Of a DNA stretch of 49,275 nt, positions 20,756-48,644 are shown piece after piece (within the stretch, counting starts at the first letter, position 1; every line of letters starts with the position of its first letter). Both the position numbers and the translations under genes were made by a program. The stretch comes from an uncultured Planctomycetales bacterium. GTDB taxonomy: Bacteria > Omnitrophota > Gorgyraeia > Zapsychrales > JANLHA01. Under the pieces are notes generated by a model. That model ran no database searches and was not told the origin of the DNA. It saw only the letters and a list, made by a program, of their open reading frames with translations. Location: NCBI GenBank assembly GCA_964635405.1, contig CAZWOH010000001.1, positions 8,589-57,863 of the forward strand. Reading direction: 5' to 3'.

Positions 20756-21079
20756 GTGGCGGTTCACTTGGGCGACCTCACCATGAACTGCCGCAATTGT
20801 TTATGCGGGAGAAAGATTCAATGCGAGTATGAAGTGCCCGGACAGGAAGTCTGGGAACTATACGGCGAGCAGTACAGAGGATGCCCTTTTAAAATCGTCA
20901 CGAGACAGTCGGCGAATTTTTTAAGGGCATTTCAGTTTTATAAGCAAGGGTATCTGCCGAATGAAGGCAGTTGGATCGAGCAGTCAGCGAAGATGCTGGA
21001 TGCTTTTGAGGTCATTGAGAAAGAGCTTCAAGCGATAGAGCTTGAGCGTGAGAAAAGAAGGAATCGGTTTAAGCGATGA
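20756..21079 (+). CDS. gpT-like extension, expressed as a G-T fusion by a -1 frameshift
   Basis: The ORF is in the -1 frame relative to gpG and has no convincing SD of its own. It is ATGA-coupled to the tape measure gene. Confidence 0.65.
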   Translation: MAVHLGDLTMNCRNCLCGRKIQCEYEVPGQEVWELYGEQYRGCPFKIVTRQSANFLRAFQFYKQGYLPNEGSWIEQSAKMLDAFEVIEKELQAIELEREKRRNRFKR

Positions 21080-22851
21080 CGAATAAAGAGCTGTCAATCA
21101 TATTGCGTTTGCGTGACGAGGCCACAAAACGTCTTGAGGGTGTGCGTGGCAGTCTGCAAAGGTTCGCTAATTCTTGGAAGCAGAATTGGCTGGCTATCAC
21201 TGCCGCTATTACGGCGAGCATCATGGCGCTTCGCAAGGCATGGGATCTTATGGAGATGGGGGCGAAAGCCCAGCAGATTGAGGAAAGTTTCAAGCGAATG
21301 GCTGAGAGTGTCGGCATTAACTCTCGGGAGATGAAAAAAGCGTTAATGGAAGCCTCGAATGAGACGGTTAACTTCTCAAACGTGGCGGATAAAGCCTCGG
21401 CTCTCATGGCGCAGGGGTTGAATATGGATCAGGTGACAGCGCTCATGCGTCAGGCTCGGGTTGAGGCGAGGATATTCGGCACGACAACGGAGGAAGCGTT
21501 TCAAAACATATCAAGCGCAGTCACTGGCGGGTTAGTCACGACATTGCGCCGGTCATACGGGCTTCAGTTGTCGCTTAAAGATGCGACTGAGGAATACGCC
21601 AAGGCTACGGGCAAGACCACGGAAGAAGTGCAAAAGTATCACATGGCGCAGGCGCTTGCCAATCATATTTTAGAGAGAAGCAAATCGCATCTTGAGGCGG
21701 TGAACCTTGAGTTGATGACGAGTTACGAAAAGGTTCAGATGCTTAAATCCAAGTGGAACGATTTCATGGAGTCAGCCGGGCAGATGTTGTGGCAGGTGCT
21801 TGGTTTTCTGCAGGGATTCGCCAATCAATTGGTGACAGGCGTATTCACGATTCTTGAGTATGGAGCCGGTGCGGTGAAGGCGTTTATTCAGGGGATTGTC
21901 AACGCTCTCAATGGTCTTTTAGCGTTTGGGACGGATTTCTTTCAAAAACTCATGGTGCCGCTGATTAAATTCTATGAGCTTTTAGGAAAACTTCCCGGCT
22001 CAGTCGGTGAGACGTACAGGCAGGCGGCGGCTGAGGTAGAACGGTTCTCGCAGTCATTAGAGGATAACACGATCCAGTTTAATGTCGAGGGACTTACGCA
22101 AGGACTCGAGGAGGCGAAGCAGGCGTTTAATCTTGCGGCTCAGGAAAGTGCAAAAGAGGCGATAGCGCAGTACGACCTTGTTTTCGCCAAGGTTAAGGAC
22201 ACCGGTGATAAGACAGCGGAGATTCTGAAGAACGTTGCGAAAGAGGTCGGCAAGGGAGCTGAGGAAGCGGGAAAACAATTTAACGCCATGGAGGAGTTCG
22301 CCAAGCAGTCCGCTCGGAACATGCAGAACGCTTTCTCGGACTTTTTCTTTAAAGCGTTTACCGGTGAGCTTCGCAGTGTCAAAGAAGTGTTCGCAGATTT
22401 CGGCAGAGCGGTTTTGCAGATGATCTCAAACATTTTGGCGAAGCTGTTGCTTATCAAGATGTTCACCGCCATGGCCGGGGCTGGCGGCACGATATTCGGC
22501 GTGCCTGTTGCGAGTTTGTTTCATCAGGGTGGCACGATTCAAAGACGCAACCGTGCGTTTATTCGTGCGCATTCCGGTCTCGCTCCCGATGAGGTGCCGA
22601 TTATTGCGCAGACTGGTGAAGGTGTGCTTTCCCGCAGGGGTATGCGAGCTATCGGCGGATCAGACAATTTAAGGTCGCTTAATAACGGCGAATCTATCCA
22701 AGGCGAGGGGATAACGATAAACGTCAATCAGGTTATACAGGCGTGGGACGCTCAGGACGTGTGGCGCAACCGCAAGATGTTATCCAACGCCATCGCTGAT
22801 GATATTTATAACAACGGCAAGATTCGTTCCGTGATCAGGAGTTACGCATGA
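21076..22851 (+). CDS. Tape measure protein
   Basis: 591 aa, helical and Ala/Gln/Glu-rich with hydrophobic segments. Canonical position. Confidence 0.9.
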   Translation: MTNKELSIILRLRDEATKRLEGVRGSLQRFANSWKQNWLAITAAITASIMALRKAWDLMEMGAKAQQIEESFKRMAESVGINSREMKKALMEASNETVNFSNVADKASALMAQGLNMDQVTALMRQARVEARIFGTTTEEAFQNISSAVTGGLVTTLRRSYGLQLSLKDATEEYAKATGKTTEEVQKYHMAQALANHILERSKSHLEAVNLELMTSYEKVQMLKSKWNDFMESAGQMLWQVLGFLQGFANQLVTGVFTILEYGAGAVKAFIQGIVNALNGLLAFGTDFFQKLMVPLIKFYELLGKLPGSVGETYRQAAAEVERFSQSLEDNTIQFNVEGLTQGLEEAKQAFNLAAQESAKEAIAQYDLVFAKVKDTGDKTAEILKNVAKEVGKGAEEAGKQFNAMEEFAKQSARNMQNAFSDFFFKAFTGELRSVKEVFADFGRAVLQMISNILAKLLLIKMFTAMAGAGGTIFGVPVASLFHQGGTIQRRNRAFIRAHSGLAPDEVPIIAQTGEGVLSRRGMRAIGGSDNLRSLNNGESIQGEGITINVNQVIQAWDAQDVWRNRKMLSNAIADDIYNNGKIRSVIRSYA

Positions 22852-23805: not shown

Positions 23806-24198
23806 ATGGTTGAGAAATATCTCGGCGTTTCTTACCGTCACAGAGGACGCACGATGGACGGGCTTGATTGCTGGGGTTTTCTCAAGCTGGCGTACGCTGA
23901 TTTAGGCGTTTCTCTCTTTGATGTGGAGGATCTGGAATACAGCAAGATTTGGGGGCTTAAAGGCAAAGACTATTTCAGGGATAACTACGCCCACGATTGG
24001 GAGAAGGTAAGCGACCCGCAGATTTTAGACGGCATTTTGTTTGTTAATTCAAAAGGAATCGCTAATCATGCGGGAATAGTTTTAAGCAACAGGCGGTTTA
24101 TTCATTGTTGCCGTCAAGGCGTGATCGTGTCACGGCTCGATGATGTTTCATGGGTTAAAAAGATAGAAGGATTTTACAGGTTGAGAGCATGGTCATAA
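23806..24198 (+). CDS. NlpC/P60 peptidase tail protein, gpK-like
   Basis: Catalytic Cys context GLDCWGFLKLAY and downstream His (IANHAGIV). The start is uncertain; alternatives are 23701 or 23647. Confidence 0.8.
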   Translation: MVEKYLGVSYRHRGRTMDGLDCWGFLKLAYADLGVSLFDVEDLEYSKIWGLKGKDYFRDNYAHDWEKVSDPQILDGILFVNSKGIANHAGIVLSNRRFIHCCRQGVIVSRLDDVSWVKKIEGFYRLRAWS

Positions 24199-27100
24199 TT
24201 CGTAACATAGCCAATCCATTTAAGACCGAGGATGCGCAAGTCCGGGAGTTTAAGTATTCCCGGAGCAAATGCGTGCGGGATTATCTTGATGAGTCGGGTT
24301 TTGACTATCAGGGCAAGCGGGTGATCGTTACAGGCAAGCGCATTGAGGACTTGTCTGTGAGGATTGATAACGGTGACCAGATTGTCGTTGTGCCGGAGGT
24401 AAAAGCCCCGATTGTCGCTGTGGTGTCATGGATTATTTCCGCTGTCTGGGCGGCGGCCGTGGCGCATCCGTTTCTGTTTACGTTCTTCGTGCTTTCCATG
24501 GGCTATTCGATTTATCAATACATGAACCAGCCCAAGATGCCGGATTTCAATCTGGGAGCGGGAACGGGAATGGATGAGGGGTCGCCTACATATGGCTGGG
24601 ACGGCGTGCAGACTATTCAGGAGGTCGGCGTGCCGGTGGGGGTGGTTTACGGCAGGCACCGCATAGGCGGCAATATCGTTAATCAGTATTTATGGGAGGA
24701 CGGAGATAAACATTATCTCAATATCCTGCTCGCTCTTTGCGAAGGGGAGATCGAGTCGATTGAGGAAATAGAGTTAAACAATAATCCAATCGGTAACTTT
24801 GACGGTGTTTCAGTCGAGAAACGTTTCGGCGTGAATTATCAAAGCATGATCTCTAACTTTGAGGATCTGCACAATGTTTATCCGGTTAACGCCAATCTCA
24901 CGCAGAACAATCCCTATGTCTACACCACAATCGATTCGGATGTCGAGGCGTTTGAGATTCATTTGAGGCTTAGCAACGGGTTGTATCAGCAGAACTCAGG
25001 TTCTGGTGATATCCAAAGCTGGAGCGTGACTTACCGTGTTGAATACAAACTTCATTCAGAAAGTGTTTATATCGATTTGGGAGAGACGACGATATCAGGG
25101 CAGTCACGCACCAGCGTCCGGCGTGTCTTTAGAAAGACTGGGCTCACGCCCGGGCAATACGATATTCGTATTACCCGCACCAGTGAGGACAGCTCGCTTC
25201 AACCGTTAAAGCAAGGCGATCTTACGCTGTTTCAAATCGATGAGATTAAAACCGACGATTTGGTTTATCCAAATACCGCATTGCTCGGGCTTCATTTGTT
25301 GGCTACAGACCAATTAAGCGGATCAACGCCGAATATAACAGCGATCGTTGAGGGCAAAAAGGTTTCTATCCCGGACGTGCGAAACGCAGGCGTAGCGGTT
25401 GATTGGGAGGACTATTACTGGGACGGGAATGATTATCGGTTGCTTGCGGATGACACGCTTCTTTCGTGGGACGGTTCAACATACGTTCTGAGATATTCGG
25501 CGAATCCGGTGTGGTGTCTGCGGGATCTCGTGACAAATAAAAGATACGGTCTGGGTGAGTTTATTCTCACGGACAATTTGGATAACGCCTCACTTCTTGA
25601 GATGGCGCAGTATTGCGAGGAGAAAGTTCCAGACGGCCAAGGCGGGTTTGAGAAGCGGTTCAGGATGGATGTGGTTGTGGACAGTAATCATAAGGCGCTG
25701 GATATTTTGATTCAGTTATGCGCCACATTTAACGCCATGCCGGTGTATAGCGCAGGAGGACTCGCTTTTAAAATCGACAAGCCCACGATCCCAACGCAGT
25801 TATTTGGCATGGGGAATATTGTCAAAGATTCATTCGCTCAGAGCTGGAAAACGATGAAAGAAGTGCCGAACGTGATCGAGGTTCAGTTTACGGATAAAGA
25901 GAAAAACTATCAGCAGGAAACAATCGCATACATTGATGAGGAATCGTTAGCGTTGGGCGAGCCAATGCGCAAGAGCCAGATTCGTTTGTTTACCACGGGG
26001 GCGAGTTACGCCATTCGTGCGGCACGATACGCTTTGAAAGTCGCCCGGCATATTAACCGTTCAGTCGCTTTTAAGGCGGGCATTGACGCTGTCGCATGTC
26101 AGGCGGGTGATGTTATTTCGATCTCGCATGACGTTCCACAATGGGGATTTTCGGGCAGAGTTCAGGACGGCAGTTCATCGACGTTGATTAAGTTAGATCG
26201 GGCGATGGTTATTGAGGACGGCAAGTCTTACAAGATACAAATCAGGTTTAGTGATGACACGATTGAGGAACGGCTTATTACTTCGCCCACGGGGACGCAT
26301 AGCGAGATTGAGTGCGAGGCTTTCCCAGCGGACCCGCAGGCGTTTGATGTTTACGCTATTGGTGAAACGAACAAGGTGAAAAAAGATTTCCGGGTGGTGT
26401 CGGTTCAGCGTGAGGGCAAGCATGAGGTTCAAATATCTGCGCTTGAGTATAACGAGGCGGTCTATGACGATTCGGATATTATCCTGCCGCAGAATAATTA
26501 CTCATCGTTATCGAGCGAGATTCCGACAGTCAATAACCTCAGTTTGACGGAATCACTGGTAAAAAAGACGGACGGAACGATTGAGAACGCTATTGATGTC
26601 TGGTTTGATCGCCCGGCCTATATCGATCATTACGTTAAGTCATACGCTAAGGCGAAGATTTATATAAGCGATGATAACGGCCAGAGCTGGCGTGCGAGAG
26701 GCGAAACCACCGGCACGCAGTTTCGCATTATTGGCGACATTGTTGACGGGCATACGTATAAGGTCAAGGTGACTTCGCTGGATTCATTAAATGAGGAGAG
26801 TTCGCTCGCTACGGCCCCGGAGAGCGAGATCGCTGTTGTTGGTAAATCAGCGCCACCGTCCGATGTTCCATCGTTCTTAGTTAACCGTAACAGGGACATG
26901 TTGTATTTCGGCTGGACACCCATTCCTGATGTTGATGTTTGGGGTTATGAGATCAGGCGTGGGCTTGATTGGGAGAGCGCAGAATTTATCACGCTTCAGC
27001 AAGGGACGCATTATCTCACCAAGGATGTCAAGCGAGGCATCGGCCAGCGGTACTGGATTAAGGCGATCGACACGTCAGGCAATTATTCCGTGAACGCAAA

Positions 27101-27809
27101 AGAGGCTGTTGTCACTATCACCGAGATTCCGTTTAGGAACATTATCGCTGAATATCAGGAGCAACCTTTGTGGGAAGGGGCGAAGGTTAATATCGAGAAA
27201 GTAGACGAGTCAATCGTGATCACGGACGGCGTGATGTCAGGAACGTATACAACGCCGGTCAGGGATTTTGGATATGTGGCAAGTGTTTATATCGGAATAG
27301 ATGTGATCGTATCGACTTCATTGGGTAGGCGTTTTAACAGTGATGGAGTCACGAAGTTTAATGACAGTCCATCGTACCGTTTTACTGGCCAAGAAACTTT
27401 GCGGGCGGCGAGTTTCCGCATAAGGACTTCAGAAGACGGTATTACGTGGAAAGATTGGGAGGACTACCAGCCCGGCGATTATTTCTGTCGCTACTTTCAG
27501 ATCGAGTTGACGCTGTACAGGGAGAATATCGGCGACGCTATTACATGCTCAACGTTTCAGTATTTCGGGGATCTCCCGGACGTGGACGACTATGGCAATG
27601 ATTCGGTGGTTTCAGCGGTTGATGGCAAGCAGGTTTTCTTTGGGAAGACGTATCACGAGGAGCCGAGCGTCCATATTGAGATAAGAAGCGGGAACGGTAT
27701 TTATTCCCAATTCGTGGCGAAAGATATCACGAGTTTTACGGTGAAGCTATATGACGCCCAAGGCGTGGTGCAAACAGGAACGTTTGACTGGCACAGCCAT
27801 GGGATTTAG
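24189..27809 (+). CDS. Host-specificity / tail tip protein, gpJ-like with a gpI-like N-terminus
   Basis: 1206 aa. The N-terminal ~110 aa form a ubiquitin-like segment plus a hydrophobic stretch (APIVAVVSWIISAVWAAAVAHPFLFTFFVL). FN3-like region (APPSDVPSF...GWTPIPD). Confidence 0.85.
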   Translation: MVIIRNIANPFKTEDAQVREFKYSRSKCVRDYLDESGFDYQGKRVIVTGKRIEDLSVRIDNGDQIVVVPEVKAPIVAVVSWIISAVWAAAVAHPFLFTFFVLSMGYSIYQYMNQPKMPDFNLGAGTGMDEGSPTYGWDGVQTIQEVGVPVGVVYGRHRIGGNIVNQYLWEDGDKHYLNILLALCEGEIESIEEIELNNNPIGNFDGVSVEKRFGVNYQSMISNFEDLHNVYPVNANLTQNNPYVYTTIDSDVEAFEIHLRLSNGLYQQNSGSGDIQSWSVTYRVEYKLHSESVYIDLGETTISGQSRTSVRRVFRKTGLTPGQYDIRITRTSEDSSLQPLKQGDLTLFQIDEIKTDDLVYPNTALLGLHLLATDQLSGSTPNITAIVEGKKVSIPDVRNAGVAVDWEDYYWDGNDYRLLADDTLLSWDGSTYVLRYSANPVWCLRDLVTNKRYGLGEFILTDNLDNASLLEMAQYCEEKVPDGQGGFEKRFRMDVVVDSNHKALDILIQLCATFNAMPVYSAGGLAFKIDKPTIPTQLFGMGNIVKDSFAQSWKTMKEVPNVIEVQFTDKEKNYQQETIAYIDEESLALGEPMRKSQIRLFTTGASYAIRAARYALKVARHINRSVAFKAGIDAVACQAGDVISISHDVPQWGFSGRVQDGSSSTLIKLDRAMVIEDGKSYKIQIRFSDDTIEERLITSPTGTHSEIECEAFPADPQAFDVYAIGETNKVKKDFRVVSVQREGKHEVQISALEYNEAVYDDSDIILPQNNYSSLSSEIPTVNNLSLTESLVKKTDGTIENAIDVWFDRPAYIDHYVKSYAKAKIYISDDNGQSWRARGETTGTQFRIIGDIVDGHTYKVKVTSLDSLNEESSLATAPESEIAVVGKSAPPSDVPSFLVNRNRDMLYFGWTPIPDVDVWGYEIRRGLDWESAEFITLQQGTHYLTKDVKRGIGQRYWIKAIDTSGNYSVNAKEAVVTITEIPFRNIIAEYQEQPLWEGAKVNIEKVDESIVITDGVMSGTYTTPVRDFGYVASVYIGIDVIVSTSLGRRFNSDGVTKFNDSPSYRFTGQETLRAASFRIRTSEDGITWKDWEDYQPGDYFCRYFQIELTLYRENIGDAITCSTFQYFGDLPDVDDYGNDSVVSAVDGKQVFFGKTYHEEPSVHIEIRSGNGIYSQFVAKDITSFTVKLYDAQGVVQTGTFDWHSHGI

Positions 27810-28054: not shown

Positions 28055-28307
28055 ATGCAAGAAGGAGATTCCTGACGATATGGCGTATGTGTCGGTCAGG
28101 GGTGACATTATTCTGCGAATGCCTAAAAGAAAACCGATTGTGTTCACCTGCGCTGAGCAGGCTGAGAACTACGCCCGGCAGATGACGTTACATGACGTTT
28201 GCTGGATTCAGATGTTGCGTGAGCATGGGGTTGAGCTTTACGACATGAATGATGTCGCTGAGTCTTATAAGAAAAGGGAGGTGGGCGATGGCTTGGGACA
28301 AGACTAA
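28032..28307 (+). CDS. Hypothetical protein with an N-terminal CxxC (91 aa)
   Basis: SD aaggag. The sequence begins MDKLICSKCKKEIP. Confidence 0.55.
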   Translation: MDKLICSKCKKEIPDDMAYVSVRGDIILRMPKRKPIVFTCAEQAENYARQMTLHDVCWIQMLREHGVELYDMNDVAESYKKREVGDGLGQD

Positions 28308-28779
28308 ACCCGAGAACGATATGCTTTTGATTAACTTCCCGCCCGCTTGCCGTGCGAATTGGGATGCGTTGGAATTGTTGACGGACCCGGCGTTGCAGAT
28401 CACGAACGATAAGGTTGCCCCGGGTGCGGGAATTGAGGACACAAAACTCGCCCAGATAACCTCAGCCAATAAAGTTCATGGATCGGCGATTACGGGTTTG
28501 GGCAGTATTCCTTCTGCGGCGGGTGTTTTGCCGACAGAGAACTCGCCTAATAAGTTGAAGGCGGATGTCAGCGACACGACGCCGGAGTATTTGGACGGCC
28601 TTATTGATACGGCTATGTTTCAGGTGTCAGCGAGCGATCAATTGCAGTTGAAGGACAGCGGGGTATCGACAGCGAAACTTGAGAATGGATCGGCGTCACC
28701 CGGGAATAATAAGTATTACGGAACGAACGCATCAGGCACAAAAGGATTTTTTGATAAGACGGCGGTTTACGCCTCGTAA
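28288..28779 (+). CDS. Tail fibre protein (short), putative
   Basis: The N-terminus MAWDKTKPENDMLLINFPPACRANWDALE resembles the conserved N-terminal anchor of many phage fibres. SD gggaggtg. The track ORF opens at 28249. Confidence 0.6.
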   Translation: MAWDKTKPENDMLLINFPPACRANWDALELLTDPALQITNDKVAPGAGIEDTKLAQITSANKVHGSAITGLGSIPSAAGVLPTENSPNKLKADVSDTTPEYLDGLIDTAMFQVSASDQLQLKDSGVSTAKLENGSASPGNNKYYGTNASGTKGFFDKTAVYAS

Positions 28780-28787
28780 GGAGAAGC

Positions 28788-29513
28788 ATGGCTCATAAGA
28801 TGCCACCAAAACAATGCTCATCAAATACACCGGCATGGACGGATCCGGTTCTTACTGATTTGTCCACAAAGGTGCGCAAGGTTCATATCGATGAGCTCAG
28901 GGCGTTCTTGAACGCCGAGTTTGTGAGGCGTGGGCTTACGCAGGCGTCTTTTACGGACCCGACAATCACGGCTTTGGTCACGGAGATTAGAAAGGTTCAT
29001 GTGGACGAATTAAGATCAGAACTTGCGGCTTGTAAATCAGGCAGGGGCGAGTCTGGCTATTGTCCGCAAGATAGTTCCGGGTGTATGGATTTCACGGATC
29101 CTACGATTACGGCTCTTTCAACAGAGGTCAGAGGCATTCACTTTAGGCAGGCAATGCAGAAGGTTCAGGCTTTAATGACGGGTTGTATTTGTGAAACCGA
29201 GCAGTGCCAGTATTGCGCAGATTGCGGATATCACTATACGACGTGTTCGCACGCTGGCGTGGCATGTGATGACCATAAATATTCAGAGTGTCAGTATTCA
29301 ATAAATCATTATTGGAATTGCGCCAGTATCAACTTGCCGTCAGCGGCTGAGCATCCGTATAAATCGGCGAACCCGCCTGTGGCGTGGGACGGATATGTGC
29401 CGTGGGATTGGTGCGTGTATACGCCGCCGGGATCAAACTGGGGATCATGTGAGTATCAGGGCGGGCATAACCATACGGCGTGGAATTGTAAATGTAACCC
29501 TTATTCATGGTGA
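28788..29513 (+). CDS. Cys/Trp-rich protein with three N-terminal repeats. Candidate substrate of the adjacent radical SAM enzymes.
   Basis: 241 aa. SD aaggag. Repeats WTDPVLTDLSTKVRKVHIDELR, FTDPTITALVTEIRKVHVDELR and FTDPTITALSTEVRGIHFRQAM. 17 Cys in total, 13 of them in residues 133-241. Confidence 0.8.
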   Translation: MAHKMPPKQCSSNTPAWTDPVLTDLSTKVRKVHIDELRAFLNAEFVRRGLTQASFTDPTITALVTEIRKVHVDELRSELAACKSGRGESGYCPQDSSGCMDFTDPTITALSTEVRGIHFRQAMQKVQALMTGCICETEQCQYCADCGYHYTTCSHAGVACDDHKYSECQYSINHYWNCASINLPSAAEHPYKSANPPVAWDGYVPWDWCVYTPPGSNWGSCEYQGGHNHTAWNCKCNPYSW

Positions 29514-29518
29514 GGAAT

Positions 29519-29914
29519 ATGTTTCAGGATCAGGAAAAAGCGGATATAGCTTCATTCAAGGCGGCTCTACTGGAGAACGAGAACGCAGTAGATGAGCTTA
29601 TTCACTACAGCAAAAATAATCTGAATGATTTAACCGTTCAATGTTTCACGCATAAACGATTCATGAGCGTTCAGGACTTCATTGATGCCTTATGTCAGGC
29701 GTATCAGGATCTTGGTGTTGAGGGGTCGAATGGCAATATCTCTAATTTCGTTTTGTTCATCGCCGGGACGCACAGGGATAACCTTTACGCTTCGCATATC
29801 GTCGATTTAAGCGACGAGCATCGGCAAGTGTTTCGGGAAAGACTTGGACTGGATATTGAGGAAATCGAAACGGGATTAAGCAAATTGATTTGGAGGATAG
29901 ATGGCGGTATTTGA
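29519..29914 (+). CDS. Hypothetical protein (131 aa) between the Cys-rich protein and the rSAM genes
   Basis: The ATG at 29519 follows SD ggtgagg. The track ORF opens at 29507. It overlaps the start of rSAM-1. Confidence 0.6.
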   Translation: MFQDQEKADIASFKAALLENENAVDELIHYSKNNLNDLTVQCFTHKRFMSVQDFIDALCQAYQDLGVEGSNGNISNFVLFIAGTHRDNLYASHIVDLSDEHRQVFRERLGLDIEEIETGLSKLIWRIDGGI

Positions 29915-31118
29915 GCTTAAAAACAGCAAGGCGGTCGGTGACCTGCCATCGCAGTGCCGGGATGTTATCAAGCGGTACAAAGATGAGGGGATGTTTAATA
30001 TTGCCTCGATAACAAATGGCAAACAGGAATACACCACGGTGTATTTCCTTATGACGCAGGACTGCAATTTGCGGTGCGCCTACTGCTATCAGCCCAAAGA
30101 GTTCAGGCAGAAGGATACCGGCATTACACAGGACATTATTGACTCAACGATGGATTGGGTTTCTCGGACGTTTGATGAGCGCAAGATCAAGTTCAGCATC
30201 TTTGGCGGTGAGCCGTTTTTGAATTTCCCGATGCTCAAATATCTTTGCGATACCTATTGCATGTACCGGTATGTCGTGACAACAAACGGTTTGATTTTAC
30301 TTGAGGATCAGGACGTGCGTGATTGGGTGTTGAAGCATAAATATCATTTAAATTTGAGCGTGAGCGTCTCAGCACTGCGGAGTAAGTTCGGGAAATCATA
30401 TTTAAATAAGGTTAAGCCTTTGCTAGATCTTGTCATGTCGAACGGAGGGGATGTGCATTATGTGGTTGATGATCCCGAGAGAGAGTTTGTTTATGAAGAG
30501 ATTGTTTGGCTATATGAATACGGAGTGCCGATCGTACGGGTATCGTCAGCCCGGCATTGGGATATGGTCAAAAACAAGAATGAGGCTTTTAAAGATTTAT
30601 TTCGGCGTATCGCTGACTACGTTTATTTCACTGGCCAGCCAAAGTTTGGCAGGAGTCAGTGGGACATAGCGTTTAAGAATAACATTTACCGCAAGATGAA
30701 GGGCATTGCGCTCAAAGACGTGCCCCCGACTTTTTGCGGCTGTGGGTATCTGTATTTGGCGGTGAATAACAAGGGCGAGATTTATCCGTGCGACTTCTTC
30801 GCTAATTACCCGGAGTTCAAGATTGGGGACGTTTGGGACGGATTTAATGATACGGCGTTCTTCTTCAAGAAGATGGGAGATTGGATCGGCGAGCTTTACG
30901 AGCATTGCCGGGATTGTGAGGTTTGCTTTGACGGCGATATCAGGTGTTGTCCGAGAGCGATGTGCTTGGCGGAGAATTACACAGTAACCGGTAATCCGTT
31001 AAAACCAGCGCCGAATCACTGTTGGGCGAATCGTATTGAGACGGCGACGTATGAGTATATAGCGAAGAAGGCGATTGAGACCGGCATAGATGTTTTTTAT
31101 CACAAGGGGCGGGCATGA
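29901..31118 (+). CDS. Radical SAM / SPASM-domain enzyme 1 (anSME/peptide-maturase-like)
   Basis: CNLRCAYC (CX3CX2C), FGGEPFLNF, SPASM-type Cys pattern CGYLYLAVNNKGEIYPC ... HCRDCEVC...CCPRAMC...NHC. Confidence 0.9.
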   Translation: MAVFELKNSKAVGDLPSQCRDVIKRYKDEGMFNIASITNGKQEYTTVYFLMTQDCNLRCAYCYQPKEFRQKDTGITQDIIDSTMDWVSRTFDERKIKFSIFGGEPFLNFPMLKYLCDTYCMYRYVVTTNGLILLEDQDVRDWVLKHKYHLNLSVSVSALRSKFGKSYLNKVKPLLDLVMSNGGDVHYVVDDPEREFVYEEIVWLYEYGVPIVRVSSARHWDMVKNKNEAFKDLFRRIADYVYFTGQPKFGRSQWDIAFKNNIYRKMKGIALKDVPPTFCGCGYLYLAVNNKGEIYPCDFFANYPEFKIGDVWDGFNDTAFFFKKMGDWIGELYEHCRDCEVCFDGDIRCCPRAMCLAENYTVTGNPLKPAPNHCWANRIETATYEYIAKKAIETGIDVFYHKGRA

Positions 31119-32200
31119 GGATTCCGGTTTATAAATCAGTTTATCTATATCTGACGCACGCTTGCAACGCCAATTGCTCGTTTTGCTATCGCCGGGGGCT
31201 ATTTGAGCGCAACAAGATATCGACGCTGGGCCCTGTGAAGATGTCAAAGCAAACGGCGGATGACATTATCGATTTTTGCTTCGGAAGGCTCAAGTTGGCG
31301 CCCAAGTTCACGATTTACTTTTGGGGCGGTGAGCCAACGGTTAATTTTGAGGTTATTCAGCATGTGATGGAGAAATATCCGCAGATGCTCTTTCACATGA
31401 ACACCAACGGCGCTCTGGTCAATGAGCGAATGTATGGGTTTTTCTCACGGCACCGCAATATCGGGATCACATGGTCGTTTGGCAATTGCTATGAGAAATA
31501 CGGCGGGCCTCAGGGTAAGGCGCAGGCAGAGCCGTGGATGCTCAAATTGGTAAGGGAGAACCCGAACCACAACGTGAATTTCATGGTCGTGGAATATGAC
31601 CGGCTCAAAGAGGACTTTGATTTTATCGCCAAGAACATCACTCGTAATATAACGATTGACCTCGCCACACGCCACGATCACAAGAAAGAAGATTTGGAGA
31701 GGTTCGCAGAGCAATATTTCGAGTTGCTTGTTGAGCATGAGGGCGACTCAGAGATGTTTCAGACCTTGAACCCGGCGCTTCATAGCAACGCTTACGTGCG
31801 GGAGTTTGGGTTAAAGGCGCAGGTCAGGGATTTTCACTTCTGCAGGACGGGCTTGGATCGGCTTTTTATCGATACAGAGGGCGGTATTTGGCAATGCGAC
31901 AACATGTATATTTGCAGGCATAACCGGCTGGGTTCGGTGTATGACGGCATCGATTACTCAAAGCTGGATTATGTGTGGGAGATTGACGCAAATCGGGAGA
32001 GGTATCTCGGCAGGTTCTGCGAGGGTTGCGAGTTGTATAAGCGGTGTCCTCGCAATAAATGTTTGGGGCTGAATCTCGAGCACATGGGCGACATGTTTAA
32101 GCCGGAGCCGGGGTATTGCGCCATGAACAAGGTTATGGCGAAGGTCATTGATAAATATATCCAGTTGGAAAAAGAAAAGAAGGAGGCAGTTAATGTCTAA
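31115..32200 (+). CDS. Radical SAM / SPASM-domain enzyme 2
   Basis: CNANCSFC, WGGEPTVNF, FCRTGLDRLFIDTEGGIWQC ... FCEGCELYKRCPRNKC ... YC. ATGA-coupled to enzyme 1. Confidence 0.9.
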   Translation: MRIPVYKSVYLYLTHACNANCSFCYRRGLFERNKISTLGPVKMSKQTADDIIDFCFGRLKLAPKFTIYFWGGEPTVNFEVIQHVMEKYPQMLFHMNTNGALVNERMYGFFSRHRNIGITWSFGNCYEKYGGPQGKAQAEPWMLKLVRENPNHNVNFMVVEYDRLKEDFDFIAKNITRNITIDLATRHDHKKEDLERFAEQYFELLVEHEGDSEMFQTLNPALHSNAYVREFGLKAQVRDFHFCRTGLDRLFIDTEGGIWQCDNMYICRHNRLGSVYDGIDYSKLDYVWEIDANRERYLGRFCEGCELYKRCPRNKCLGLNLEHMGDMFKPEPGYCAMNKVMAKVIDKYIQLEKEKKEAVNV

Positions 32201-33353
32201 CGAGGAAGTGGTCGGCGGTAAAACCAAAGACGAAATTAAAAGCATTGATTTGTTTGTTACCGAGCAGTGCAACATGAACTGCGATTACTGTTTTCATCCT
32301 AAGAGCGAGGCGGTGCTTTCGGTGGATCAGGGAAAAAAGATTCTCGCTCGGATGAAGGAGTTGAGTCCTGCCGCTTTGCAGATCACGTTCTTTGGAGGTG
32401 AGCCGCTGTTGTATCCGCAGACAGTTTTGGATCTCGCTCAATACGCCCGGGAACTGTGGCCAGCGGATAAAGAAGGACGGCATATATCGACGTTCTCGAT
32501 CTCAACGAATGGCATGTTTTTCGATGAGGCAGTGTTTAAGAAGTTTGCTGAATTAGGCATGGCGGTTCAAGTCAGCTGTGACGGAGATGAGATCACGCAC
32601 ACCGAATATCGGCATGGCGACTATAAGCGGATTATCGAGAACATGAAGAAGATTTTGGCGATTAAGCCGGACATGAGCGTGCGCATGACGTTTACGCCCA
32701 AGACGGTGGGCAGGCTCGCCATAAACGTGCAGTATCTTCATGAGCTTGGTGTCACCAAAATCATGCACCACGCTGTTATGGAGGAGGATTGGACGGATGA
32801 GGCGGTTGAGCAATACCGTTACCAGCTTGGTCAGATTTATCATTACCGCAGGTATTGCAAACGTCAGGGTTTGCCGCTTGAGATAGCGTTTATCGATAAG
32901 CCGCTCAGGATCGTTAACGATGAGGCACCCCCGGAGAAAGAATATTGTCAGGCGGGCAAAAGTTATATCGCCATTTTGGATAATGGCGACGTTTATCCCT
33001 GTCATCGTGCGGCCAGCGCTCGGATATTCAAGCTCGGGAATATCTTTCAGGAGAGACCGTTCATTCGGGGCATCTTCCTGAATATTGATAAGGAATACAC
33101 TGGCTGTTGGAGAAACTGCCCTCACGCCCGCACGTGCCACAGTTGCGTGATCACGCACTATAAGGTCAATCAGGAACTCACGGTCCCGGTCACGAAGTAT
33201 TGCCGGATATGCGCAGTTGAGAGTGAGCAGGCTTCGGGGTTCTTGCCGGTCGAGTTGGCGGATCGACGTGAGCGCATGCTTTATAAGGTTGGTCAGGTCT
33301 TGGTGGATGTCGCCAAGCAGAACGAGGAAATATTGGAAGCGTTAAAAAAATAA
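32193..33353 (+). CDS. Radical SAM / SPASM-domain enzyme 3
   Basis: CNMNCDYC, FGGEPLLYP, YCQAGKSYIAILDNGDVYPC ... GCWRNCPHARTCHSC ... YCRIC. The ATG at 32193 follows SD aaggagg. The track ORF opens at 32148. Confidence 0.9.
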   Translation: MSNEEVVGGKTKDEIKSIDLFVTEQCNMNCDYCFHPKSEAVLSVDQGKKILARMKELSPAALQITFFGGEPLLYPQTVLDLAQYARELWPADKEGRHISTFSISTNGMFFDEAVFKKFAELGMAVQVSCDGDEITHTEYRHGDYKRIIENMKKILAIKPDMSVRMTFTPKTVGRLAINVQYLHELGVTKIMHHAVMEEDWTDEAVEQYRYQLGQIYHYRRYCKRQGLPLEIAFIDKPLRIVNDEAPPEKEYCQAGKSYIAILDNGDVYPCHRAASARIFKLGNIFQERPFIRGIFLNIDKEYTGCWRNCPHARTCHSCVITHYKVNQELTVPVTKYCRICAVESEQASGFLPVELADRRERMLYKVGQVLVDVAKQNEEILEALKK

Positions 33354-33365
33354 GGAGGTATGGCA

Positions 33366-33656
33366 ATGGGAAAAGTTATGAACCATGAGGAGATAGTCGT
33401 TGGGGTTGTTGTTAAGGCGTTAAGTCCCGCTGTTTACAATCCGGTAGGCGGGCAGTCAGCTTCGTTCGCCATGATCACCGCAGAGGGCGGGGATATGCGG
33501 TATTTCGTGAACGGACAGAACCCAAACGCATCATCCGGCGTGTTGTTGGAAGAAGGGGACATTGTCGAGCTTCCGTCCATTTATCACATTAAGGATTTTA
33601 AGGTGATAAAGGCGGGCGACGATGATGGCAAGCTCGTTGTGACTTATGAAATATAA
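33366..33656 (+). CDS. Small hypothetical beta-rich protein (96 aa)
   Basis: SD aaggagg. The ATG at 33366 has better spacing than the one at 33360. Confidence 0.6.
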   Translation: MGKVMNHEEIVVGVVVKALSPAVYNPVGGQSASFAMITAEGGDMRYFVNGQNPNASSGVLLEEGDIVELPSIYHIKDFKVIKAGDDDGKLVVTYEI

Positions 33657-33672
33657 AAAGGAGGATTTTGCG

Positions 33673-34224
33673 ATGGATCATATTAAACACCAGAAAAAGA
33701 ACAGGATAATAAATCGAGTCACGGAGATAGTGACCGAGGGCGGATTACCCAAGACCGGTCAGACGATGGTTTATCAAATGGGCGACGATGGTTATTACCA
33801 AATGGGGTATCCAATCGGCGGCGCTCAAAGATTTATCGATAACGGCGACGGCACCGTGGTTGATATGGCGACCGGGCTTATGTGGATTAAAGATCCGCAG
33901 GCGGCAGGCTTTGGAATGACTATGTATTGGTATGATGCCATCAACGCTTGCGAGAATTTATTTTACGCCGGGCATGATGATTGGCGTTTGCCGAATATTA
34001 ATGAGCTCATGTCAATCGTGGATCACTCGAGGTACAACCCGGCGTTTGACACGATGTTTTTCGTTCCGGCTCCGGATACTTGGACTCCTTATTGGTCATC
34101 AACGATTTGCGCTCCATGGCCGGACGGGGCATGGTGCTTATATCCTTACGATGGTTATAAAACTTCATGGGGTAGACCTTGGGATATGTGTTTCGTGCGT
34201 CCAGTTCGTGGTGGCAGATCATAA
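33673..34224 (+). CDS. DUF1566 (Lcl C-terminal-like) domain protein
   Basis: DNGDGTVVDMATGLMWIKDP and HDDWRLPNINELMSIVD are the signature segments of DUF1566. SD aaaggagg. The track ORF opens at 33646. Confidence 0.8.
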   Translation: MDHIKHQKKNRIINRVTEIVTEGGLPKTGQTMVYQMGDDGYYQMGYPIGGAQRFIDNGDGTVVDMATGLMWIKDPQAAGFGMTMYWYDAINACENLFYAGHDDWRLPNINELMSIVDHSRYNPAFDTMFFVPAPDTWTPYWSSTICAPWPDGAWCLYPYDGYKTSWGRPWDMCFVRPVRGGRS

Positions 34225-35964: not shown

Positions 35965-36060
35965 AACAATTTGGAATGAGTCCCGAGTTCGAAGGAATAA
36001 ATCCCGGACTTTAAAAAAGCAAAACCTTCGCTGGTTACATTGACCGGCGAAGGTTTTTTT
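35965..36060 (+). ncRNA. Candidate short transcript, copy 1 (promoter + conserved core + intrinsic terminator)
   Basis: TTGATT (35930) N16 TATAAA (35952). The 51-nt core gtcccgagttcgaaggaataaatcccggactttaaaaaagcaaaaccttcg (35980-36030) is shared with copy 2. Terminator ccttcgctgg/ccggcgaagg plus T7. Confidence 0.3.
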
Positions 36061-36090
36061 ATTTGGGCAAATTGCTTTGAAGAAGTTCTT

Positions 36091-36120
36091 GCTATATTGC
36101 TATAAATATAGTAATATAGC
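36091..36120. promoter_or_regulatory. 30-bp near-perfect palindrome. Candidate operator of the RM controller.
   Basis: gctatattgctataaatatagtaatatagc: 26 of 30 positions are self-complementary. It lies 19 nt upstream of the RHH gene and overlaps -10-like tataaat/taatat. Confidence 0.5.
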
Positions 36121-36138
36121 GTAAAAGGAGTTATCCTT

Positions 36139-36327
36139 ATGAGTAAATCCGAGCGAGAAACGAATATGAAAAAAACAACTATCGAAATCTGTGAGGATCA
36201 ATATTTTTTTCTAAAAGAGAAGGCGCTTGAATTACAGAAGCAAAATAAAAACGCTTCTATCATATCTATAATTCGTGAGCTGATTGATCGAGATATGAAA
36301 GAATGGAATAGATCTAAGAAAAAATAA
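36139..36327 (+). CDS. Ribbon-helix-helix (CopG-like) regulator, putative RM controller
   Basis: KKTTIEICEDQYFFLKEKALELQKQ...IISIIRELIDRDM fits a beta-strand plus two-helix RHH layout. SD aaggag. Confidence 0.6.
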   Translation: MSKSERETNMKKTTIEICEDQYFFLKEKALELQKQNKNASIISIIRELIDRDMKEWNRSKKK

Positions 36328-36341
36328 TGATCGGAGAATAA

Positions 36342-37406
36342 ATGCGTTTTATTGGCTGTAAGAATAATATATTAGAGCAAATTTATGAATTTATTTTATC
36401 TAAAAAGATTTATGGTGGCACTTTTTTTGATATTTTTAGCGGGACAACGAGTGTAGCCTCTTTCTTTAAGCGCAAAGGATATCGGGTTATTTCTAATGAC
36501 AATTTATATTTCTCGTATGTTCTACAAAAGGCATATATTGAGACGAATGCTCAACCCGATTTTTCACGACTATTAAAAATGGTCAAATTGCCCCCTAATG
36601 GGGAAACAGCTCCTTTGAACAAGGTAATTAAGTACTTAAATTCCCTTAATGGCAATAAAGGGTTTGTATACAAAAACTATACTGACAAAGGAACGCAAGG
36701 CAGTGAACATATAAGAATGTATTTTCAATCCGATAACGGCGGTCGTATTGATGGCGTAAGGCAAAAGATTGAAGAGTGGAATGGTTCTGGTTTGTTGTTG
36801 GAGTCAGAGTATTTTCTTCTTCTTGCTTCATTAATTGAAGCCGTGCCTTCGATTTCAAATATTTCTGGAACATATGGGGCTTTTTTAAAGTTTTGGGAAC
36901 GGAGAACATTTAATCCATTGATGCTTAAAGTTCCGGAGATTATTATTAATTCGTACAAAGATAACAAGGCCTTTAATGAAGACGGTACTGATCTTTGCAA
37001 AAATATTGAATGCGATATTTTATATATTGATCCACCATATAACGCACGCCAATATGCACCCAATTATCATGTGTTAGAGACTGTTGCTCGGTACGACAAC
37101 CCTGTTGTATCCGGGAAAAGTGGTATGCGGAATTATGAAAAAATGAAGTCGCAGTTTTGTAAGCGACAAACAGCTATCGAAGCCCTTAAGAAAATTGTGA
37201 CAACGGGTAAATATAAGCATTTAATTTTAAGTTATAACAACGAAGGGCTGATGACGGATCGGGATATTCGACAAGCGCTTGCTTCTGCGGGAGCTACAGT
37301 TGAGAAGGAAGTAATAGAGTACAGGAGATATAAAAGTCACAGCCATGGCGATAATGGCAAAAAGAAGGTTAATGAATTGCTTTACTATATAAATAATGGA
37401 AGGTAA
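36342..37406 (+). CDS. N6-adenine DNA methyltransferase (D12/Dam-like class)
   Basis: N-terminal MRFIGCKNNIL and FFDIFSGTTSV (motif I). ILYIDPPYNARQYAPNYH (motif IV). Confidence 0.9.
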   Translation: MRFIGCKNNILEQIYEFILSKKIYGGTFFDIFSGTTSVASFFKRKGYRVISNDNLYFSYVLQKAYIETNAQPDFSRLLKMVKLPPNGETAPLNKVIKYLNSLNGNKGFVYKNYTDKGTQGSEHIRMYFQSDNGGRIDGVRQKIEEWNGSGLLLESEYFLLLASLIEAVPSISNISGTYGAFLKFWERRTFNPLMLKVPEIIINSYKDNKAFNEDGTDLCKNIECDILYIDPPYNARQYAPNYHVLETVARYDNPVVSGKSGMRNYEKMKSQFCKRQTAIEALKKIVTTGKYKHLILSYNNEGLMTDRDIRQALASAGATVEKEVIEYRRYKSHSHGDNGKKKVNELLYYINNGR

Positions 37407-37408
37407 AA

Positions 37409-38626
37409 ATGGCAAAAGACAAGCACGATCTTAATTTTCAAGGGGATATGTTTTCCACTAACACCTATTTCTTAGAAGAAGAAATCAAAAAATGTATTCT
37501 TAAAAACAAATTATCAGCGCACGAGAAGGAAATATTAGAAGAAATTAAAGAGATCAGTTTGGGATATGTAAAAAGCAAAGTCAAAATTGAAAAAAACAAA
37601 TCAAGGCTTGATGCCATTGATGCACAAAAAGAAAAAGTGCCGCTGAAAGGGCATATTGATAAAAAAGATATGGTCAAACTTCCTGATTGGATCAAGGAGA
37701 AGATTGACGATGCTTTTATTGTCGGGAAGTCTGGGAGGGTTGTAAGCGTTGGAGGCAAGAAATACCACTTGGACAACCCTTTAAATGATCTTGATGGTGG
37801 TGTTTGGACTTATTTTCTACGATCAGTGATAAACACACGGTATCCAGTATCTGGACCTGAAGGATTTGCGCATCATATCCGTAAAATACACCCCACGCCA
37901 AAGCCTCCGCAATTGATGCGTGATATTATCAAGTTTTTTACTAAAAAGAATGAATGGGTGCTTGATTATTTTATGGGTGTCGGCGGGACACTGCTTGGTG
38001 CATCTTTGTGTGATCGGAATGCAATAGGTATTGATTTAAATAAAAAATATATTGAGGCATATAAGAAGGCTTCAAAAGAACTTGGGTTGAAAGAGCAGGT
38101 TTGTTTGTGCGGTGATTCCTTGGAGATTTTAAGCTCATCTAAAATATCGGAAATTACAAGGAATGACAGAATATCGCTAATCTGTATCGATCCTCCTTAT
38201 GGGGATATGATGAGCAGAAAGAAGACAGGAGAGGCGGCGAAAAAAAAGCTTTCTACAGAATCAACGCCATTTACCGATCACAGCCAAGACCTTGGGAATG
38301 TTAGCAAGGAAACGTTTTTAACGTTACTGAGAAAATCTGTTGAGGGCGCCATTAATTATTTGAAAGATAAGCGCTACGTAATTGTTTTCACAAAAGACTT
38401 TCAGCCTTCTGGAAAGGATTTAAATTTATTGCATTACGATATTATCAAAGAACTCAGCGGGATTACAGGATTGAACTATGTAGGAATGAAAATATGGGCG
38501 GATGAAAGTATTAATTTATATCCTTATGGTTATCCGTATGCTTTTGTTCCAAACCAATTGCATCAATATATACTTGTTTTTAGAAAAGAAGCTCAAGTGG
38601 ATCGTAAGGCCGCTAAGGCATCTTGA
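37409..38626 (+). CDS. Second DNA methyltransferase (N6A/N4C type)
   Basis: VLDYFMGVGGTLLGA (motif I-like) followed by ISLICIDPPYGDMMS (motif IV). Confidence 0.8.
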   Translation: MAKDKHDLNFQGDMFSTNTYFLEEEIKKCILKNKLSAHEKEILEEIKEISLGYVKSKVKIEKNKSRLDAIDAQKEKVPLKGHIDKKDMVKLPDWIKEKIDDAFIVGKSGRVVSVGGKKYHLDNPLNDLDGGVWTYFLRSVINTRYPVSGPEGFAHHIRKIHPTPKPPQLMRDIIKFFTKKNEWVLDYFMGVGGTLLGASLCDRNAIGIDLNKKYIEAYKKASKELGLKEQVCLCGDSLEILSSSKISEITRNDRISLICIDPPYGDMMSRKKTGEAAKKKLSTESTPFTDHSQDLGNVSKETFLTLLRKSVEGAINYLKDKRYVIVFTKDFQPSGKDLNLLHYDIIKELSGITGLNYVGMKIWADESINLYPYGYPYAFVPNQLHQYILVFRKEAQVDRKAAKAS

Positions 38627-39954: not shown

Positions 39955-40097
39955 TTAAATACCTTTCATGTCGCCTGTTAAGGAGTTACGCAAGAGGGGG
40001 AATATGCATTGCAGGCATCTTTTTATTTTACCAAGAATATTATTGAAAGTCCATAATTTTGCTTGACTTCTGGCTATTTTCTTTATATAAGTATATG

Positions 40098-40206
40098 TGT
40101 AGAGTTAGTGTTATTCCGTCCCGAGTTGGAAGGGATAAATCCCGGACGTTAAAAAAGCAAAACCTTCGGCAGGTGCCATTATGTTCACCTACCGGAGGTT
40201 TTTTTG
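40098..40206 (+). ncRNA. Candidate short transcript, copy 2
   Basis: TTGACT (40063) N17 TATAAG (40086). Core 40118-40168 differs from copy 1 at 3 of 51 positions. The terminator stem is different but compensated: ccttcggcaggtg/cacctaccggagg plus T7. Confidence 0.3.
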
Positions 40207-40233
40207 TTTTTAGGCAAATACAGGAGGTGTGGT

Positions 40234-40464
40234 ATGGGGAAAAATCAGCATGTGGTAAAAACGGATGACGGGTGGGGTGTTCGTGGTGAAGGCAATTCTC
40301 GATTAACATCGGAACATCACACCAAAAGCGCCGCTGAAAACGCCGCAAGGCAGATTGCGAAAAATCAGCATTCAGAGTTAGTTATTCACGGCCGTGATGG
40401 GAAAATTCAGGATAAGGACAGCTTTGGCAATGACCCTTGTCCGCCAAAGGATCGCAAGCATTAA
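40234..40464 (+). CDS. DUF2188 family protein
   Basis: HVVKTDDGWGVRGEGNSR...ELVIHGRDGKIQDKDSFGNDPCPPKD matches the DUF2188 signature. SD aggaggtg. The track ORF opens at 40204. Confidence 0.85.
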   Translation: MGKNQHVVKTDDGWGVRGEGNSRLTSEHHTKSAAENAARQIAKNQHSELVIHGRDGKIQDKDSFGNDPCPPKDRKH

Positions 40465-40488
40465 TATCAATTTTACGAAGGGTACTGA

Positions 40489-44243: not shown

Positions 44244-44246
44244 GCA

Positions 44247-46066: not shown

Positions 46067-46068
46067 TT

Positions 46069-47295: not shown

Positions 47296-47296
47296 A

Positions 47297-47479: not shown

Positions 47480-47488
47480 GACTACCCG
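47342..47488. repeat. 147-bp repeat, copy A
   Basis: Aligns without gaps to 49025-49171 with 123 of 147 identities (hand count). The 3' 62 bp are nearly identical. Confidence 0.85.
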
Positions 47489-48569: not shown

Positions 48570-48644
48570 GGCGAGAAACGTCTGGATTGTGCCGGGCGCT
48601 GGCGGCAGATAAAGAGCGTGTTGGGTTAAAGTCTCGAGAGAATT

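Follow-up and report, generated by a model that had tools for sequence, protein, structure and literature searches.

The known systems closest to the locus described here, in which a 241-aa protein with a triple-repeat domain and a Cys-rich tail (hereafter called CRP) is encoded next to three enzymes of the radical S-adenosylmethionine (rSAM) type, are those of PapB, QhpD and SCIFF and the peptide precursors with long leaders. The locus lies in a stretch of 49,275 nucleotides from contig CAZWOH010000001.1 of an uncultured Planctomycetales bacterium; this whole stretch is called the window, and positions are counted from its first letter. PapB, the enzyme of the freyrasin type, joins a Cys residue to a downstream Asp or Glu (PMC12373016). 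Three thioethers between Cys and Asp/Glu are made by QhpD within the gamma subunit (QhpC) of quinohemoprotein amine dehydrogenase, a Cys-rich polypeptide that stays in its assembly; one enzyme acts there, a 28-residue leader is taken off by a dedicated protease, and an ABC transporter serves for export (PMC7876137). In the SCIFF and CXXX-repeat systems, the precursors are peptides of about 45 aa. The SCIFF maturase CteB carries an N-terminal recognition element (RRE) for peptides that are synthesized ribosomally and modified post-translationally (RiPPs). Nif11 precursors are composed of a long conserved N-terminal region and hypervariable cores. The same arrangement is described for proteusins (NHLP), in which the long conserved region derives from a protein fold (PMC10858898).

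By analogy, the system of CRP would work like the thioether maturation by PapB, QhpD and SCIFF in combination with a long-leader precursor, but it is a member of none of these systems, because its enzymes are below every curated equivalog cut-off, it has no RRE, protease or exporter, and its substrate would consist of two domains. No description of a phage tail-module system with rSAM enzymes and a Cys-rich protein was found in the literature searched; the one phage paper mentioning both thioether and rSAM (PMC12801897) turned out to contain an unrelated “antibiotic synthesis” annotation. We propose that CRP probably comprises a constant three-unit handle and a variable Cys-rich tail, is a substrate of the adjacent PapB-like enzymes without RRE, and serves as a component of the distal tail of a phage. 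This proposal is anchored in data on the nature of the domain, its fixed triplication, its independence of rSAM genes, the linkage of the Cys-rich tail with rSAM genes, the dependence of the enzyme number on the tail, and the swap of the cassette.

The triple-repeat domain of CRP

The three leader-like repeats noticed in the initial annotation of CRP, 22-aa copies of (W/F)TDPxxTxxxTxxRxxHxxELR, are real and exactly placed (Table 1; base 28836 opens the codon of W17, and base 29510 is the last sense base of the open reading frame, ORF). Pairs of the copies have 14, 13 and 10 of the 22 residues in common; in 200 shuffles of CRP, the best ungapped pair of 22-mers never exceeded 8/22. Identity of the copies at the DNA level is as low as 35–41 of 66 positions, and the repeats are thus considered to be old and kept at the protein level. 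The wider spacing between repeats 2 and 3 is due to a 9-residue insertion with an invariant YC92PQD. As had also been noticed, repeat 3 is degenerate at its end (HFRQAM for HIxELR), which is a peculiarity of this lineage, given that the family consensus is HIxELR in all three copies. The repeat region contains four further Cys residues that had escaped mention. Inside the domain, C10 is 92% conserved and C92, located in the YCPQD insertion of the linker between repeats 2 and 3, is invariant; an equivalent C-x-T-D-T is found in the same linker of related short-tail families. C10 and C92 may form a further cross-link or a disulfide.

When the N-terminal 132 residues were modeled by AlphaFold2 (AF2) with an alignment of 123 sequences, a compact intramolecular three-helix domain was predicted (predicted local distance difference test score, pLDDT, 84; predicted template modeling score, pTM, 0.77). 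The helices of 16–17 residues are at residues 31–47, 69–84 and 116–131, each preceded by an extended segment of the WTDPTITA type, and the same three helices appeared in the model of full-length CRP (49 homologues). According to these models, each repeat makes up one of three structural units in a single compact and helical domain with pseudo-threefold symmetry. Foldseek searches of the PDB and BFVD with the full-length and domain-only models gave nothing at E ≤ 0.001. Three tandem repeats in a single chain are known to make one domain with internal threefold symmetry in triple SLH domains and PAAR caps, and such modules at protein termini dock on cell-surface polymers (SLH) or trimeric spikes (PAAR). 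The resemblance is an analogy only: neither a sequence nor a Foldseek match was obtained, and the phage unit has 38 aa with a single helix. As for an SLH domain proper, there was no Pfam match (PF00395), and no SLH entry was among the weak Foldseek matches listed.

The domain is, furthermore, widespread. A word-indexed search with the domain profile retrieved 308 proteins, and an exhaustive one 7,712 cluster representatives at E ≤ 1e-3 (an approximate count, as the profile takes in some flanking positions) and 2,874 at E ≤ 1e-30. In most matches, the domain is the very last part of a protein, which may be as long as 2,029 aa, and its partners include fn3, Flg_new_2/InlB-B-repeat, Big_9, Calx-beta and subtilase domains; several members have a visible signal peptide, and the large carriers of the C-terminal domain are apparently secreted. 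With a hidden Markov model (HMM) of the single repeat, 170 of the 176 sampled members were seen to have three copies exactly, with a dominant period of 38 aa, so that the number three is a property of the fold. CRP shares with the family three tandem units of the ~38-aa type with [WF]TD, T and HxxELR, and when CRP is aligned to 122 members of this family, there is no variation at H33, R38 and R76, and the conservation of T18/D19, T56/D57, H71, T103/D104, H118 and R123 is 90% or more. No model of the domain exists in the versions of Pfam, NCBIfam and PHROG searched; the homologue P0007 bears a precomputed tag, PF27469.1, that is absent from the Pfam version used, and the family may be the very recent Pfam entry behind this tag. 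A search with the back-translated WTDPTITA pattern hit just two viral loci, and scans of viral contigs with two further alignments (A8 and A11) hit none. In proteins of the L105-type loci and of L107, and also in P0081, an HxH motif stands after each of the three helices (GHYH, SHYH and GHTH), which suggests a metal site formed by the three repeats.

The initial annotation had left room for a trimerization or fiber-shaft motif. In the corresponding model, the repeats of three chains would form a shaft or neck, the Cys-rich part would be a knob held by metal or disulfides, and the rSAM enzymes would act elsewhere. The threefold periodicity, the tail-fiber neighborhood, the many His and Cys residues able to bind metal, and the HxH that follows every helix of the L105/L107 type fit with such an arrangement. 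A canonical trimeric shaft is, nonetheless, not supported by the compact and confident monomer model, and the domain occurs singly at the C-terminus of very diverse non-fiber proteins. Also, the rSAM genes track the Cys-tailed forms without a signal peptide in the sampled loci and are absent from seven tail-less cellular loci (see below), and disulfides would be unlikely to form in the reducing cytoplasm, where a protein with no signal peptide stays. We therefore regard a trimeric shaft as very improbable.

The Cys-rich tail and the number of rSAM enzymes

The region following the domain (residues 133–241) was correctly described at the outset as rich in Cys and aromatic residues; it has 13 Cys, 11 Tyr, 7 Trp and 7 His. 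Nine of these Cys do not vary across 49 homologues, and C153 has a conservation of 94%; E138, Y142, D145, G147, W206 and W218 are also conserved, E138 and D145 among the acidic residues being invariant and E136 nearly so. The Cys and these three acidic residues are sequence prerequisites for the thioethers that define ranthipeptides and sactipeptides, in which an enzyme links Cys to an alpha, beta or gamma carbon of another residue. The earlier statement that acidic residues sit next to many of the Cys holds weakly: 5 of the 13 Cys have an adjacent Asp or Glu, compared with a mean of 2.3 in shuffles (P ~0.05), but Asp/Glu at positions +1 to +4 are not enriched. CRP has no signal peptide. It has 57 homologues, one of them in a metagenome-assembled genome of Dehalococcoidales and 46 of them 45–95% identical over at least 99% of the length, whereas no match was found in Pfam, PHROG, NCBIfam or PDB sequences or, by tblastn, in 50,697 GenBank phage records. 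Two homologues, P0018 and P0048, have an extra N-terminal extension of 85–170 aa; these extensions did not match any upstream tail gene and hence give no argument for a fusion. A profile search confined to the Cys-rich tail listed three proteins, which is less than the family already known, and tells little about whether other N-terminal domains carry this tail.

All three enzymes encoded downstream have the CX3CX2C motif intact and C-terminal clusters of Cys. While enzymes 1 and 3 are above the cut-off of the rSAM family PF04055 (29.5 bits), enzyme 2 is just below it (Table 1). For the SPASM domain (PF13186; cut-off, 21.5 bits), enzyme 3 scores 22.9 and enzyme 1 scores 14.9 bits, with no match for enzyme 2; enzyme 1 is, however, above the cut-off of TIGR04085 (32.3 vs 27 bits), and the C-terminal 120 residues of enzyme 2 contain seven Cys. 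With pairwise identities of merely 21–26%, the three enzymes are, as judged from their sequences, old paralogues. The TTG start of enzyme 3 lies 53 nt inside the gene of enzyme 2, and an in-frame ATG at 32193, which would leave an operon-typical overlap of 8 nt, is more likely the true start. Downstream of the three PapB-like enzymes in L004/L005 (12383–16894), a glycosyltransferase-like gene, a viperin/MoaA-like rSAM gene (374 aa) and a further rSAM gene (433 aa) are present, and several glycosyltransferase genes occupy the same place in L002.

The best NCBIfam match of all three enzymes is the PapB ranthipeptide maturase (NF047865; 111, 96.6 and 169.3 bits for enzymes 1, 2 and 3), which is also the best profile for enzymes of related cassettes, but membership in the PapB family was rejected, as all of them are far under the equivalog cut-off of 340 bits (97–169 bits). 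Other leading matches are the SCIFF, nif11, CXXX-repeat (TIGR04115) and QhpD maturases, again far below the equivalog cut-offs, and among solved structures, the sequence of CteB comes closest (PDB 5wgg; 8e-19 with enzyme 3). Like the substrate of PapB, the tail of CRP is rich in Cys with downstream Asp/Glu; unlike it, CRP is 241 aa long and has a folded N-terminal domain of 130 aa instead of a short leader peptide, three diverged enzymes would act on one substrate, and the genes belong to a phage tail module but not to a bacterial biosynthetic cluster. QhpC has no sequence similarity to CRP, and the protease and transporter of the Qhp system are not present here. The phage enzymes align with CteB only from its residue 91 onward and with the PapB model from position 2–4, and 16–54 residues precede the first cluster Cys; there is accordingly no room for an RRE in any of the three. 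CRP is thus no canonical RiPP precursor, for which a short leader recognized by an RRE and a leader protease or exporter would be expected; neither of the latter was found among the called genes of the cassettes examined. The 135-aa ORF between CRP and enzyme 1 gave no significant family match and no PqqD-type match; it is present in the siphovirus-type loci but missing from L001, L002–5 and L077. As a stand-alone recognition protein, this ORF was rejected because no match supports it and several lineages lack it while keeping all three enzymes.

Wherever a full-length homologue of CRP has enough downstream DNA, orthologues of enzymes 1, 2 and 3 follow in the same order. The linkage of the three enzymes persists down to 37% identity and is seen in the contexts of both siphovirus (gpJ) and myovirus (gp25/Baseplate_J/PAAR) tails. 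The initial annotation had taken the equal number of repeats and enzymes in the window as compatible with each repeat being a leader-like recognition element for one rSAM paralogue, and the presence of three rSAM genes in every complete locus of the window family, three rSAM-domain genes in L055 and L057 when the B12-binding type is counted, and enzymes without their own RRE are in line with this idea. Across the wider family, however, the repeat number does not co-vary with the number of adjacent rSAM genes (counted by local HMM/phmmer matches with spot checks in Pfam); the repeats are fixed at three, and the rSAM genes vary from 0 to 3. There is one SPASM rSAM gene in L109, followed by an IS605 transposase; one SPASM and one B12-binding rSAM gene in the L105 type and L107; two SPASM rSAM genes in L098/99, followed by a DNA methylase; two SPASM and one B12-binding rSAM genes in L055/56; and three SPASM rSAM genes in the window family and L057. 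The handle has three units in all these types of loci, albeit units 2 and 3 of the L105 type are degenerate yet readable. Proteins with the three repeats also occur with no rSAM gene detected within 5–8 kb, namely, in seven tail-less cellular loci (L006, L048–52 and L054) of Patescibacteria and others; in one more locus (P0121/L053), no rSAM was found among the called genes.

Two cases are particularly telling on this point. L098, which belongs to the window's own family, is short of one enzyme and about 25 tail residues but keeps all three repeats; conversely, L077/78 keep three enzymes although repeats 1 and 3 have a decayed HxxELR. Together with the prediction that the repeats pack as one domain and are not free linear motifs, these data leave hardly any chance for the pairing of one repeat with one enzyme. 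The match of three repeats with three enzymes is a coincidence and is unfit as an annotation rule; since the rSAM count varies with the tail while the repeats are constant, the number of enzymes follows the tail, not the repeats. Candidate one-repeat forms with the same tail, P0176 and P0177, were set aside because their longer relatives, L077/L078, begin with the usual N-terminus and have all three repeats in degenerate form; P0176 and P0177 themselves are on contigs of 1.3–1.6 kb and are probably truncated gene calls.

The domain profile also retrieved further small proteins without a signal peptide, in which the handle begins at residue 3–25 and is followed by a Cys-rich tail. These tails have no mutual similarity beyond a first C-[ILV]-C motif, and the types carried by the same handle include CICNCNYCACDCNC..., CLCDCDGHC..., a 76–106-aa CWTCDxCD..., and (CT)n, the last of which was added by a scan with a profile of enzyme 3 (L103–L113, L125 and L107). 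The common start of the otherwise unrelated tails, C-[ILV]-C-x-x-[DEN], is about 10 residues past helix 3; counted from the ELR of helix 3, the first tail Cys comes 10–11 residues later in most of the tail families read and 14 residues later in three others. In all these Cys-tailed forms, an rSAM gene is adjacent or at most ~1.5 kb away, and the co-occurrence of Cys-tailed forms lacking a signal peptide with rSAM genes is thus strict in the sampled loci. Upstream genes, where called or matched, are those of a fiber or baseplate.

Two of the tails, likewise added by the scan with the profile of enzyme 3, are extraordinarily long. In the 481-aa protein of L109 (8554–9999), the gene of which has a single adjoining rSAM gene, the tail is a (CxxCDxD)n stretch of 371 aa with 88 Cys; in the 496-aa protein of L147 (2680–4170), it is a (CExxCQxx)n stretch of 361 aa with 75 Cys, followed by an (HSD)n run. 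The CxxCDxD unit contains Cys-X3-Asp, fitting the acidic acceptor of PapB that is C-terminal to the Cys (PMC12373016), and the tail of L147, a (CxxxC)n type, is reminiscent of the CXXX-repeat systems.

The leader-like idea, therefore, survives for the domain as a whole, with its conserved sequence, near-fixed spacing to a hypervariable Cys-rich tail and maturases without RRE, but not for the individual repeat. A conserved N-terminal domain, a hypervariable Cys-rich region and RRE-less maturases follow the logic of long-leader RiPP precursors, and from the near-constant spacing between helix 3 and the first Cys in conjunction with the lack of RREs, we infer that the handle presents the tail and may be a common docking surface for the enzymes.

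The phage and its exchangeable cassette

The DNA of the window is that of a temperate phage or prophage of the siphovirus-like type (Table 1), in which a portal gene was also identified. The gpJ-like gene in its place fixes the CRP genes in the distal-tail module, where CRP is followed by the overlapping 135-aa ORF, the three overlapping rSAM genes, the 98-aa ORF and the Lcl_C gene.

Table 1. Features of the window, numbered from its first nucleotide.
Feature	Position	Strand	Remarks
Serine recombinase	40-1695	-	
Large terminase	11159-13030		
Major head protein	16706-17662		
591-aa ORF	21076-22851		candidate; taken as tape measure by position and length
gpJ-like central tail fiber / tip attachment protein	24189..27809	+	phrog_31, 3.4e-157; PF24801, PF13550
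176-aa ORF upstream of CRP	28249..28779	+	left border of exchangeable cassette
CRP, triple-repeat domain and Cys-rich tail	28788..29513	+	ORF, 241 aa
N-terminal triple-repeat domain, aa 1-132	28788..29183	+	AF2, profile search
Repeat 1, aa 17-38	28836..28901	+	WTDPVLTDLSTKVRKVHIDELR
Repeat 2, aa 55-76	28950..29015	+	FTDPTITALVTEIRKVHVDELR; 38 aa from repeat 1, the commonest period of the wider family
Repeat 3, aa 102-123	29091..29156	+	FTDPTITALSTEVRGIHFRQAM; 47 aa from repeat 2; degenerate end
Cys/aromatic-rich C-terminal tail, aa 133-241	29184..29510	+	proposed substrate region
135-aa ORF	29507..29914	+	overlaps both neighbors; accessory gene, lineage-specific
Enzyme 1, rSAM/SPASM, 405 aa	29901..31118	+	CNLRCAYC at aa 55; PF04055, 31.1 bits
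Enzyme 2, rSAM, 361 aa	31115..32200	+	CNANCSFC at aa 17; PF04055, 27.4 bits; phrog_1802, 2.4e-24
Enzyme 3, rSAM/SPASM, 401 aa from TTG	32148..33353	+	CNMNCDYC; PF04055, 61.3 bits; SPASM, 22.9 bits
98-aa ORF	33360-33656	+	right border of cassette
Lcl_C-domain protein	33646-34224	+	PF07603, 8.6e-28; right border of cassette

Two relatives of the window phage, L105 and L103, have ~70% DNA identity with it through the gpJ-like gene and the 176-aa ORF, the latter being kept in relatives with a different cassette. The homology ends at 28731–28754 of the window and restarts at 33339–33348, continuing through the 98-aa ORF and the Lcl_C gene, and the 4.6-kb interval in between is exactly the CRP gene, the 135-aa ORF and the three enzymes. 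At the position corresponding to 28755–33338, L105 (7359–10584) has a 191-aa handle protein with a (CT)n tail, a SPASM rSAM enzyme and a B12-binding rSAM enzyme. This exact replacement between conserved flanks indicates that the protein and its enzymes are a self-contained exchangeable unit in the distal-tail region. The product would probably sit in the virion as a tail-tip component, to which the position, the behavior of the cassette, the lack of genes for a protease or an exporter, and the domain's extracellular habit all point.

A cassette of this kind might alternatively be non-structural cargo. In such a case, the handle would be a long, folded and cleavable leader like those of proteusins/NHLP or Nif11 precursors, and the tail, once cross-linked, would be cleaved from it and set free at lysis to act as a bacteriocin, a signal or an anti-defense peptide. 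The combination of a conserved N-terminal domain, a hypervariable Cys-rich core and rSAM enzymes is what would be expected of it; enzyme 1 and its relatives match the nif11-like peptide maturase profile, the tails resemble known types of cores (L109, CxxxD repeats; L147, CXXX repeats), the cassette is discrete and swappable, and long structured leaders are known (PMC10858898). Among the called genes of the cassettes examined, however, no protease, transporter or immunity gene was found, and the junction of handle and tail has no conserved cleavage motif of the GG/GA type. The cassette is, furthermore, consistently located directly behind fiber or baseplate genes in unrelated types of tails, and P0018 and P0048 have the N-terminal extensions of 85–170 aa mentioned above. 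Unlike the leaders of proteusins and Nif11 precursors, the fold of which is unrelated, the same domain is also a stand-alone terminal module in thousands of unrelated and large extracellular proteins. A released peptide is thus considered unlikely.

Elsewhere in the window, a fusion of a ParB-like N-terminal domain with a DNA methyltransferase (phrog_498) is encoded at 9284–10582. From 36000 to 49275, the G+C content falls from ~0.49 to 0.36–0.45, and this part contains a Dam-type methylase (36342–37406), an N6/N4 methylase (37409–38626), large ORFs with no Pfam match (38593–39954 on the minus strand, 40489–41595, 41592–44243 and 44801–46066), and an ORF with an LprI-like segment (46069–47295). 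It may be a restriction/defense island or the host flank of the prophage.

Proposed maturation and its implications

In the maturation that we propose, CRP would be synthesized in the cytoplasm without a signal peptide, and its folded handle would keep the tail, the putative substrate, at a fixed distance and may double as the docking surface of the enzymes. The three diverged enzymes would each add a different subset of intramolecular cross-links, and three of them would be required because the 109-aa tail is long and non-repetitive. By analogy with PapB, QhpD and CteB, the cross-links would probably be thioethers, most likely from Cys to Asp/Glu or other side chains, and the outcome would be a knotted, redox-insensitive mini-domain. 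The finished protein would most likely serve in the distal tail, and the protein and its enzymes would be traded between phages as one cassette.

Several points weigh against this proposal. The enrichment of acidic residues beside the Cys is merely marginal, and AF2 models the tail poorly (confidence of 29–74 per 10-residue block), so that the acceptor residues are not assignable. The scores far below the PapB cut-off also make C–C or C–O cross-links to Trp, Tyr or His possible. The slot between tail-fiber and lysis genes houses non-structural cargo genes in phages as well, and the cellular loci sampled are few (8–9) relative to the size of the family. Finally, P0063 in a metagenome-assembled genome of Elusimicrobiota (L153, 8001–8964) has a signal peptide, the handle and a 60-aa tail with 13 Cys but no rSAM gene nearby, and a Cys-rich tail on the handle hence needs no rSAM enzyme by itself; its gene is followed by a 107-aa Peptidase_S74 ORF (fiber chaperone type). 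One might speculate that exported versions rely on disulfides and the phage versions assembled in the cytoplasm on links made by enzymes.

If the proposal is right, phages apply the RiPP-type maturation by rSAM enzymes to a protein of the tail module, beyond the small secreted peptides of bacteria. The three-repeat family is, in addition, a large and unannotated one (~7,700 representatives) whose fold is predicted with confidence and has no counterpart in the PDB and BFVD libraries searched. It offers a natural library of diverse Cys-rich cores (up to 88 Cys in 371 residues) on one handle, each with compact RRE-less maturases, which is attractive for enzymology and for thioether-stapled mini-proteins. 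The window and L105 represent a clean natural swap of the cassette, suited to an experiment on host range, and a testable idea is provided on how phages of anaerobes stabilize or diversify their tail tips.

More tentatively, and with the reservation that the generalization may well not hold, the tip of the tail appendage in many uncultured tailed phages might be a mini-protein cross-linked by rSAM enzymes, that is, a hypervariable, thioether-knotted module on a pseudo-threefold handle, which is matured by one to three enzymes without RRE and swapped as a cassette. If true, this would be an enzymatic, RiPP-type maturation of a structural protein of the virion, and the module would be a determinant of host range or stability, with thioethers replacing disulfides in anoxic, reducing habitats.

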